Source of the DNA: Octopus vulgaris
Taxonomy: Eukaryota
Direction of reading: 5' to 3'
DNA length: 64,000 nucleotides
Assembly: GCA_951406725.2 (NCBI GenBank)
Contig: OX597815.1
Location: 4,278,001 to 4,342,000, forward strand
The notes beneath the pieces are model-generated. The model ran no database searches. It was not told the origin of the DNA and saw only the letters and a list, made by a program, of their open reading frames with translations. Positions 1,941-58,950 of the stretch are shown one piece after another; position 1 is the stretch's first letter; each line of letters starts with the position of its first letter. A program made the translations under genes and the position numbers.

Positions 1941-2128
1941 ATATATCGTTATTTAAAACAGATTATTTTTCGAATGGCATTGTAGGGTAGGTGTGAGAGG
2001 TCAAGTAGAATATATCGGCTGGATATGGTCAGTTTAAATCCGGAAGACACAGTTCTATATTTAAGAGATGAGGAATTGCTTATGTTATTTACATTTGACG
2101 GATATTTGTCCCCATCTTGTTTGTTGTT

Positions 2129-2174
2129 AACATAACGTTTCAGCTGATATACCCTCCAGCCTTCATCAGGTGTC
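2129..2174 (-). ncRNA. Minimal type I hammerhead ribozyme motif (family 1, left arm)
   Basis: Minus strand reads GACAC CUGAUGA A GGCUG gagggtatat CAGCU GAAAC GUU AUGUU: core intact, one helix I mismatch. Confidence 0.7.
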
Positions 2175-2215
2175 TTGGGGAATGAGAACCCAGGTTAGGT
2201 TTGAAATTTCCCCAA

Positions 2216-2261
2216 GACACCTGATGAAGGCTGGAGGGTATATCAGCCGAGATGTTGTGTT
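2216..2261 (+). ncRNA. Minimal type I hammerhead motif (family 1, right arm; GAAA mutated to GAGA)
   Basis: GACAC CTGATGA A GGCTG..CAGCC GAGAT GTT GTGTT; helix I GACAC/GUGUU and helix II GGCUG/CAGCC intact. Confidence 0.65.
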
Positions 2262-2538
2262 AACAACAAACAAGATGGGGACAAATATCCATCAAATGTA
2301 AATAATGTAAATAATGTAAATCTGGAAGAGTTAAAGAGAGTAAGGAACTTTTTGAGGAAAGATTTGGCTTTCACCTTGTGTAAGGTTAGGATTTTTACCC
2401 AAAATGTGTTTCACCCCTTTTTTTCTTTTTTGCTTTCTATTTTAAATTGTTTGGGTGAGGTTATTAAAGACATTCTGCTGCTATTTCTAAATACCCAGTA
2501 ACAATATAAAGGCTCTATTATTATCTCCTCCTCCTCCC

Positions 2539-26492: not shown

Positions 26493-27032
26493 AATCAATA
26501 AAGAAGCTTCTATTTGTTCTAACACCCCCCCCACACCAAATAAGACAAAGCTCTTCCATAACTAACCCCCCCTCCCACTTTAATGACTAAAGATATACAT
26601 CTGAAAATAAAAAGCAAGACAGGCAGTAAGGTCACAGTTGGACTGTCTCTTTTTCATAGATCCATTTAATCAAAGACTTATTTCTTTGGGACAAGAACTA
26701 AAGAATGAATTCTTCTCAGAGTTAGTTGTCCAAGAGTTATAAGAACCATACAGTTCAATATTTAAGAGATGAGGAATTATGAACATTATTTACATTTGAT
26801 GGATATTTCTCCTCATCTTGTTTGTTGTTAATACATTTCTGCTAATAGACACCTTCATCAGGTGTCTTGGGGAAATTTCGAACCTGGGTTCTCACTCCTA
26901 AGGTATTTTTCAATGTAATTATTATTATTATTATTATCATTATTATTATTATTATTCAGGTCATGGCTTGGAATCGAACTCAGAATCTTGGGGTTAGTAG
27001 TCCGCGCTCTTAACCACTACACCACGGACATA

Positions 27033-27099
27033 TGGAGTAGTGGTTAAGAGCACGGGCTACTAACCCCAAGATTCCGAGCTCGATTTCAGGCTGTGACCT
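27033..27099 (+). promoter_or_regulatory. tRNA-like Pol III head (A and B boxes), mirrored on minus strand at ~26957-27024
   Basis: TGGAGTAGTGGTTAAGAGC (A box), GGG-CTACTAA-CCC anticodon-like arm, GAGCTCGATT (GAGTTCGATTCC in the mirror arm) B box; no proper acceptor stem. Confidence 0.7.
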
Positions 27100-27188
27100 G
27101 AATACTAATAATAATAATAGATAATAATAATAATAATAATATCAGAAAATACCTTAGGAATGAGAACCCAGGTTCAAAATTCCCCCAG

Positions 27189-27235
27189 GACAGCTGAGGA
27201 AGGCTGGAGGGGGATATCAGTCGAAACGTTGAGTT
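27189..27235 (+). ncRNA. Minimal type I hammerhead motif (family 1)
   Basis: CTGAGGA A GGCTG..CAGTC GAAAC GTT; core intact, helix I damaged in this copy. Confidence 0.65.
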
Positions 27236-28519
27236 AACAACAAACAAGATGAGGACAAATATCCGTGAAATGTAAATAATGTTATAAAAACCAGTTTTGG
27301 AATGAATGAAGTGATTGGTTATTGGTAGGTGAAGGAAAAAGCAGGACGAACCTGATGTTGGAATCCCCAAAAAGAGCAGATTTAGATCTTGAACACCCCT
27401 ATCTATGCATGTATGGAATGTAGACTGATCCACTTCATCACTTTACCTCTTGTTTCCCCCTATCCTCGCTGTCTAGAAAGTGGGGTGACCATCCCCTTCA
27501 CTTTGCTACCCAGTCCCTGGTGATGGGTTACCCACTAAGCAAAATGAGCAAGTGCTTAAGGTGTCAAGGGAAGGGGGGGGGGGGGGCACAACATAAATGG
27601 TAAATGGTTGACGGCACAAAAGAAATCACTTTAAACCTTGATAAGATAATATTCCAAGCGGTTTATATGATTGGAAATATAATTTTGAAGGGTTTGTGGT
27701 GTCTTAGGGAGGATCTGATCAAGGACTTTGCAATTATAAAAAAAAAAAAAATGGGAGAAAACTTTTCAAAGAAGAATCGGAAAATACAAAAAGAAACATT
27801 CTTTTCCTTCTTACTTTCAGTTTTGTTTCATTTTCAAAAATAAAACTTCATTTTATGGTTTATTATTGTTTATATTTTCAATTACCAATATATGGGGGAC
27901 ACCAAAATCGTTTAAGCACTTAGGGCCTCTATGGGTCTTAATCTGTCCCAGCCATTCCTCCATCCCTGTAGAAAGTGGACCAACCTACCCCATCACCTCA
28001 TTACCTTGTCCCCCACCCCCCTTTTATACTGAACTCTTCTCCTTTTCCTCTCCTCCTCTTCTTGCTCTTCATGTAACTCCCTCCATTGCCATCTTCTTGC
28101 AAATACCAAATCAGTTTTCTCGTTCATTACCTTTAATTACTCTACTCTCACCTCGTTAATTACTACGGTGTCCAACCATAGAGACCATGCCAAAACAGAC
28201 GACTTGGACTTGGTGCACCCCTCCAGCCCTGCCAGTCCCTATCGAACCATCAAACCCACACCATCATTGAAAATGGATGTTAAAAGATGATGATGATGAT
28301 GATATATATATGATAGGGTGAATTTGGTAGATGAAAACTGTGTGGCAGCCTAAGTGCCATGCAGAGGGACTGAACCTGAAACCATGTGGTTACAAAGCAA
28401 GCGTCTTAACCACACAGCCATCTGTGTGGCATGTCTTTAACATAACCCACCGAAAATAGCCAATATCTGGTTCCATAGCTCATCCTCAAGATGCCAAAGG
28501 AATCAACATCAGTATTCTT

Positions 28520-58490: not shown

Positions 58491-58580
58491 CCCATGCACC
58501 CCCACCAGTTTTTTAAATAACTTTTTCACTGTTTACTTTCTGTTTAATGGAGGCAAAGTGGCTGAGTTCCTTTCTAGTAT

Positions 58581-58950
58581 AGTTCTATATTTAAGAGATG
58601 AGGAATTATGTACATTATTTATATTTGACGGAGTGGTTGGCGTTAGGAGGGGATCTAGCTGTAGAAACACTGCCAGATCTGACTGGAGCCTGGTGCAGCC
58701 TTCTGGCTTCCCAGACCCCAGTTGAACCGTTCAACCCATGCTAGCATGGAAAGTGGACGTTAAACAATGATGATGATGAGATAATAATAATAATAATAAT
58801 AATAATAATATCAAAAAATAGCTTAGGAATGAGAACCCAGGTTTGAAATTTCCCCCAAATACCTGATGAAAACTGGTGGGGATATCAGCCGAAACATTGT
58901 GTTAACAACAAACAAGATGAGGGCAAATATCTGTCAAATGTAAATAGTGT
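58581..58950. mobile_element. HHR family 1 element, left arm and centre replaced by a family C 3' end
   Basis: Left extension at 58581, C fragment ~58630-58780, then (AAT)n and HHR (CTGATGA at 58863, GAAAC at 58891). Confidence 0.8.

Follow-up and report, generated by a model that had tools for sequence, protein, structure and literature searches.

A palindromic insertion in Octopus vulgaris formed by inverted pseudo-LTRs of an autonomous Penelope-like element whose tRNA-derived head is a likely internal Pol III promoter

According to the available text of two reports, Penelope-like elements (PLEs) insert with a characteristic geometry of inverted arms, a one-sided tail and target duplications (PMC8557442, PMC3846280). 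The Poseidon element of Anolis carolinensis resembles the octopus element treated here in having a single ORF that joins a reverse transcriptase (RT) to a C-terminal GIY-YIG endonuclease, a hammerhead and a tail that overlap the start of this ORF, AT-rich targets, an inverted 5' copy and a tail at one end (PMC11167929). The available part of the same report also describes ATT-type nicking, internal initiation in vitro at the two sites that bound the tail, and a protein-assisted hammerhead that is dispensable for insertion (PMC11167929). In contrast to Poseidon-clade PLEs, the pseudo-LTR (pLTR) of the octopus element opens with a tRNA-derived head containing A and B boxes, followed by (AAT)n; its sense strand lacks T4 runs (TTTT), and short copies dominate. 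Penelope of Adineta vaga likewise has inverted pLTRs, target duplications of 8–10 bp and an optional tail of ~31 bp, and its pLTR holds the first codons and shows palindromes at the 5' ends and inverted junctions; however, it uses TATA/Inr instead of a tRNA head and has a low copy number (PMC3846280). The Schistosoma SMalpha and Sjalpha sequences share a Pol III promoter with a type I hammerhead downstream, but are tandem, non-coding and non-autonomous, and the accessible text of the two reports describes no partner ORF for them (PMC6765202, PMC8490949); in the octopus, both modules are part of an autonomous element. Animal non-LTR retrozymes are short hammerhead-bearing sequences related to PLE pLTRs, which form head-to-tail tandems giving circular RNAs (PMC7229834; bioRxiv 10.64898/2026.07.22.740005, both in part), whereas the octopus copies are dispersed, solo or inverted, and carry a tRNA head. 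Finally, Cassandra retrotransposons, as far as the available descriptions go, place an internal Pol III promoter in a terminal repeat, but they are non-autonomous LTR elements of plants and the promoter is of the 5S and not the tRNA type.

The window analysed here is a 64,000-nt stretch of O. vulgaris DNA (contig OX597815.1, positions 4,278,001 to 4,342,000). Self-comparison of this window revealed two arms that are reverse complements at 81% over 526 nt (26777–27287). The inverted arms of ~250 bp proposed in an earlier note on this DNA are thus real, but their centre lies at about 27024 (27023–27025) instead of 27028. A target duplication of 13 bp with one mismatch flanks the structure (26736..26748 and 27281..27293, plus strand) and encloses it completely, so that the palindrome represents one insertion. 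Its left half, on the minus strand, starts with a PLE tail (26749..26785), which is present in this arm only and continues into the ORF in full-length copies. The entire left arm (26749..26915) covers, tail included, the initial ~55 codons of the PLE ORF; it contains the remnant of a hammerhead (26826–26866) with a partly deleted stem II and without the GAAAC segment, and is followed by an (AAT)n spacer (26916..26956) and a tRNA-derived head (26957..27024). This head spans positions +8 to +75 with intact A and B boxes, but positions 1–7 at its 5' end are missing. On the plus strand, the right head (27022..27100, +1 at 27026) has its A box at 27033–27043 and a B box at about 27078–27087 with two changes, both at invariant tRNA positions. 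An (AAT)n spacer (27101..27140) leads into the tail-less right arm (27141..27280), which again is the start of the PLE ORF (ATG at 27160–27162). Within it lies a minimal type I hammerhead (27189..27235, predicted to cut after 27230) whose core is intact; stem I is broken beside the core and retains three of five pairs, the two core-proximal ones being lost. The previously described order of tRNA-like head, (AAT)n and hammerhead-type stretch is consequently present in each arm, but both hammerheads of this copy are damaged; in its decayed state the copy is likely inert. At the left hammerhead, the deletion has left a perfect local hairpin (26845–26866), as would result from a template switch. 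Taken as a whole, the palindrome is almost certainly an inverted pair of PLE pLTRs in ordinary PLE insertion geometry.

Two further insertions of the family are present in the window. One of them (2049..2315, unstranded) consists of two inverted, 5'-truncated arms, of which the left one is tailed, and is flanked by a 13-bp target duplication; its left hammerhead is the only intact one among the five window arms tested. The other (58575..58950, unstranded) comprises a short tailed left arm, (AAT)n and a right arm with a broken hammerhead, and is interrupted by an unrelated repeat at about 58628–58783. As noted earlier, the same extension of ~30 nt opens all three copies (2051, 26752 and 58581); the architecture then ascribed to all three holds for the focal copy with respect to the heads, which are missing at 2051 and 58581. 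The interrupting repeat belongs to one of several other abundant families of short repeats in the window (D10/D20, D11/D12/D14, D17 and D19), and a general repeat search of the window was dominated by microsatellites.

How the family inserts was derived from 86 insertions, obtained from the loci of the first 91 hammerhead core matches in contig order after merging matches within one insertion and dropping one segmental duplicate; this sample is by construction selected for an intact core. Head-to-head inverted pairs account for 42 of the 86, and exactly one arm carries the tail in 41 of these 42, which bears out the earlier attribution to Penelope machinery with inverted pLTRs and a one-sided tail. 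Target duplications with a score of at least 8 were found in 27 of 45 pairs (the 42 inverted pairs and the three window copies) as opposed to 3.5% of 1980 mismatched flank pairs. Some head is present in 53/86 insertions and a head with its A box in 44/86; head parts occur on both arms in 11/86 and two A-box heads in 5/86, and the junctions of inverted pairs vary widely among insertions. Two-promoter palindromes arise now and then when insertion is inverted. Retrozymes are defined by tandem units that are joined head to tail and each contain a hammerhead, but the 86 insertions are mostly solo or inverted; no tandem arrays were detected among them, and a few (L086, L144) have a short extra direct arm. 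A back-joint indicative of circular RNA was absent from the 15 joints listed (190 more exist), in a library unsuited for this purpose.

Several details of the insertions deserve mention in their own right. A 9-nt unit located between arm and tail (about 26785–26800 in the window) is repeated one to four times; despite this variation the reading frame is preserved in 38 of 43 copies. Tail-less arms terminate in this repeat, and at one locus (L061:1540–1625) pairing between tail and arm could close a stem-loop around it (z=−1.6), a candidate structure for RT initiation. Furthermore, four head-less copies (L071, L079, L089, L024) lie at the (AAT)n tails of other retroelements, which suggests insertion into such microsatellites.

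The earlier note had called for an autonomous PLE with an ORF sharing the arm sequence, and such an element was found: the arms are the pLTR of the genome's own autonomous Penelope/Poseidon-type PLE. Its unit of ~2.6 kb contains, in this order, head, (AAT)n, ATG, hammerhead and tail (both within the first ~55 codons), RT, GIY-YIG and stop codon, and the next head begins about 37 nt past the stop. The ORF of ~820 aa thus encodes RT and GIY-YIG, the hammerhead-bearing arm being its first ~55 codons; the family majority frame is open for 819 aa from the ATG of the arm, and a later alignment adds about 36 nt. Arm and tail continue into the ORF at three loci (L184, L191, L198), and the GIY-YIG end of the ORF directly precedes a head at two others (L088, L090). 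When 30 loci were picked by RT sequence, 23 reached the ORF end and 21 of these then entered a head. One locus, L112, is a direct pLTR–ORF–pLTR copy, from which ~430 nt are deleted. The family frame matches the Pfam model RVT_1 (E=2.4e-10); the 299-aa frame of the endonuclease side had no Pfam match, but its VY..YxG, CxC, H and H motifs align with those of relatives, and all 46 relatives contain RVT_1 plus PF26215/PF28514. An 836-aa Anolis protein (P0014) shares 37% identity with the octopus protein over 780 aa. An independent intact protein of 847 aa (P0001) is 55% identical over residues 11–818, and its N-terminus contains the same hammerhead-encoded peptide. P0001 is encoded on a 2758-nt contig and offers a natural test case for the pairing of head and T4 absence; a metagenome scan for relatives with DNA context yielded none.

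With one ORF combining RT and a GIY-YIG endonuclease with the CCHH motif, and with pLTRs that are both direct (L112) and inverted and tailed at one end, the family is an endonuclease-containing (EN+) PLE. The zinc-finger linker of Neptune/Nematis is missing from the family frames and present in the genome's other PLE family; according to the available text of PMC8557442, absence of this linker marks Penelope/Poseidon. In a quick RT tree the deep forks stayed open and the Neptune-type row formed a long branch. Assignment to Penelope/Poseidon fits by domain layout. Neither the RT-anchored set of 30 loci nor 30 further matches contained a full-length open frame, and the family looks old and decayed. 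As potential partners of the arms, Neptune/Nematis-type PLEs were considered and rejected: 30 of 150 GIY-YIG Pfam matches were inspected, all of which were Neptune/Nematis-type PLEs or unrelated sequence and none arm-related, and these PLEs served as control. That family (L037, L042 and many of the GIY-YIG matches) has many open frames of 781 aa, is young and, with downstream tandem CCAAT-, TGACGTC- and TATA-like motifs, looks Pol II-driven; the hammerhead pattern was not matched in L037, L042 and other members.

A genome-wide search (227 contigs, 2.8 Gb) with the core pattern of the hammerhead gave 3726 exact matches, as opposed to 0 for the reversed control. By pattern and folding, the family carries a minimal type I hammerhead in its pLTR as is typical of PLEs; it is intact in 13 of 36 copies of a head-anchored sample. 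The palindromic AACGUU proposed for this ribozyme belongs to the majority form of the family, where it is self-complementary (−3.5 kcal/mol), although both ribozymes of the focal copy are damaged. Covariance models for tRNA and hammerhead (Rfam), recommended earlier as a check, did not match in four family loci or in narrow regions, nor in the window among the matches listed (150 of 187); Rfam matches to MIR9486 and mir-885 reflect hairpins only and were dismissed. Folding z-scores were unremarkable for both hammerhead (−0.6) and head (−0.3). Minimal hammerheads of this type cleave poorly in vitro and only as dimers, according to the part of PMC4209133 available. Since a palindromic insert has one hammerhead per strand, a dimer would require a tandem transcript or two RNAs. 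At the sole free core position of the hammerhead, position 7 (27198 in the window), about 21% of copies have A for T; this variant exchanges Asp and Glu in the overlapping ORF, and few non-CpG sites of the arm vary more.

The head measures 73–75 nt and aligns without large gaps to tRNA genes of the genome, far above shuffled sequences; the best alignment was to tRNA-Arg (49/75, z up to 7.8) among ten tRNA genes of a limited isotype set. As in tRNA-derived SINEs, the tRNA-related head has both A and B boxes, located at tRNA positions 8–18 and 53–61, and the cloverleaf stems are degraded. Accordingly, ARAGORN called the majority head only at the 70% threshold, and no tRNA in the window. The arm follows downstream in 24 of 30 head-anchored loci, and the head is integral to the unit, as had been supposed. 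A free-standing SINE consisting of the head was rejected, as the six heads without a downstream arm match are mostly accounted for (two represent a single duplicated locus, a third is ORF-linked, a fourth has a few arm letters and a fifth is a fragment) and form no large independent family. The literature searched yielded no PLE whose pLTR is tRNA-derived, and the main text and one supplement of the Octopus repeat annotation paper have no passage on such an element; repeat databases (Repbase, Dfam) may contain the family. As such the palindrome follows ordinary PLE geometry; the feature for which we found no precedent in print is a tRNA-derived head carried by an autonomous PLE.

The start of the head is also a preferred end point of the arms. 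Among 67 arms that reach the head, 38 stop at −8..+5, and the stop rate of 0.085 per nt at this point exceeds that within the head (0.0057) by a factor of 15 and that in the ORF (0.002) by a factor of about 40. A 20-mer of the head has 5148 matches genome-wide, the adjacent upstream 20-mer 848, and DNA contigs from runs with two other organism labels show a similar drop in depth and the same junction. A rough classifier, which misregistered some members of the last class, divided 72 A-box heads into 12 with fold-back junctions, 13 reaching only −7..−5, 6 with an ORF linker and 41 others. The junction signature of a longer hairpin reaching −14 was absent from 137 loci, which suggests that templates ended near −7. 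None of 30 loci picked by the 5' part of the ORF begins at a head and runs through the ORF; only L112 has an in-line head, and it begins ~75 nt inside the preceding ORF end.

A second peculiarity is the scarcity of T4 runs. The sense strand of the majority unit (2.6 kb) contains 0, with 2.9 expected by synonymous shuffling (P=0.026) and 4.2 by base shuffling (P=0.010), and real copies contain 40 in 112 kb, with 237 expected (0.36 per kb, observed/expected 0.17). Control values were 1.0–5.3 per kb for LINEs (observed/expected 0.68–1.83, ten frames of about four families) and 3.4–5.3 per kb for four Neptune-type PLE frames over 1.3 kb; shorter Neptune-type frames ranged from 0 to 5.9 per kb, and one short control frame (L031, 555 nt) has none. 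All 30 further matches inspected for a Poseidon-type control belonged to the same family, leaving no such control. G4 runs are likewise absent from the majority unit (base-shuffle P=0.04, synonymous P=0.29), and we regard the T4 statistic as modest evidence.

Expression was assessed in two RNA-seq runs carrying another organism label (10,467 and 7,586 reads, about 6% of each run). Depth was equal in both orientations, strandedness of the libraries not being shown, and 62–67% of the reads extend into unrelated flanks, mostly by read-through of host transcripts. The end mapping proposed earlier disclosed no pile-up of starts or ends at the head or the cut site in these runs, and no read ends fell on the predicted hammerhead cut. 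Of the listed sequence records that contain the stretch, none is on record as RNA.

On balance, we favour the reading that the palindrome is a head-to-head double pLTR insertion of an autonomous PLE whose tRNA-derived head is a likely internal Pol III promoter; to judge from the sequence, it is about an even bet, or slightly better, that Pol III transcribes this PLE. Transcription would start about 0–7 nt before the head, which would give the RNA a leader similar to that of a pre-tRNA, and could read through the whole unit into a tandem copy, as the sense strand has no T4 run. The PLE protein would nick AT-rich DNA of the ATT type and prime reverse transcription internally at the two sites that define the tail. 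Copying back just ~300 nt to the RNA 5' end may then produce the many short SINE-like copies, and fold-back of the cDNA end at a small palindrome (−7 to +5), or else a template switch, may yield the second, inverted and tail-less arm. The hammerhead is predicted to cut as a dimer only and need not act in making the inserts. Some findings count against Pol III: conservation of the A and B boxes among copies does not visibly exceed that of neighbouring positions, the 5' pile-up coincides with a hairpin (−9.6 kcal/mol), and cleavage at about codon 25 would detach the ATG from the ORF. Moreover, uncapped Pol III RNA is a poor mRNA. The wider proposal, that this protein-coding retrotransposon is transcribed end to end by Pol III from a captured tRNA promoter, was purged of terminators over 2.6 kb and sheds thousands of promoter-bearing short copies by internal initiation, is put forward tentatively, as somewhat more doubtful than an even bet.

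The head could instead be a passenger, namely an old retrocopy of a tRNA, or a short SINE, that came with its (AAT)n tail to lie in the pLTR of an element whose Pol II RNA starts elsewhere, the pile-up and the inverted junctions both arising by self-priming of the palindrome. Head and (AAT)n do resemble a tailed retrocopy; known PLE promoters are, in the available text of the respective reports, of the Pol II type with Inr/DPE (PMC2377424) or TATA/Inr (PMC3846280), and palindromes at pLTR 5' ends and at inverted junctions are known from the TATA/Inr elements (PMC3846280). The fold-back junctions in 12/72 A-box heads agree with self-priming, and L112 required a template starting upstream of the head. 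Yet the pile-up persists at copies without an inverted partner (11/18 also end at the head start), the −14 hairpin signature is missing from all 137 loci, and the T4-free sense strand is left unexplained, so that we consider a passenger head unlikely, if still a serious contender.

The role of the short copies can be viewed differently as well. They outnumber ORF-linked ones about 6:1 by genome-wide 20-mer counts, 44/86 insertions have an A-box head, and in the available text on Adineta pLTR sequence is enough for mobilisation in trans (PMC3846280); the solo pLTRs might therefore be a true PLE-dependent SINE with its own Pol III transcription and trans mobilisation, the ORF mRNA being made by Pol II or by read-through. 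However, solo (n=320) and ORF-linked (n=64) pLTR segments differ by no diagnostic substitution and have the same age by non-CpG divergence (4.5% vs 4.9%), their deletion differences reflecting the selection of the solo sample. A distinct non-autonomous family that shares only the 3' end of its partner was not found; all four parts, from head and (AAT)n to arm and tail, make up the pLTR of the autonomous element itself, which speaks against the separate SINE with a borrowed PLE 3' end originally envisaged. The short copies look like PLE-mobilised SINEs, yet they are not a distinct SINE family. Internal initiation on full-length RNA would yield an identical short product, and the T4-free ORF is unexplained by a pLTR-born SINE, a reading which is compatible with our preferred explanation but in itself improbable. 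Least credible of all, and in our view close to negligible, is the original suggestion that the two-promoter palindrome is itself a mobile functional unit, designed for divergent transcription into two dimerising ribozyme RNAs. The single insertion within one target duplication and the self-complementary AACGUU would suit it, but with two A-box heads in just 5/86 insertions the idea is largely refuted by the varied junctions, and at the focal locus both ribozymes and one B box are damaged.

If the head is the promoter, an animal retroelement would contain a natural Pol III transcription unit that codes for protein, an unusual drive for a protein-coding retrotransposon, and one would have to ask how translation proceeds on an uncapped RNA whose first codons contain a ribozyme. 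With thousands of copies, both the start of the PLE template RNA and the origin of inverted arms by cDNA fold-back become testable. The findings also suggest that automated repeat libraries list some PLE pseudo-LTRs as "SINEs". Should the tentative proposal of end-to-end Pol III transcription be true, a LINE-like element and its SINE would be united in one sequence, which would provide a direct route to the birth of SINEs.
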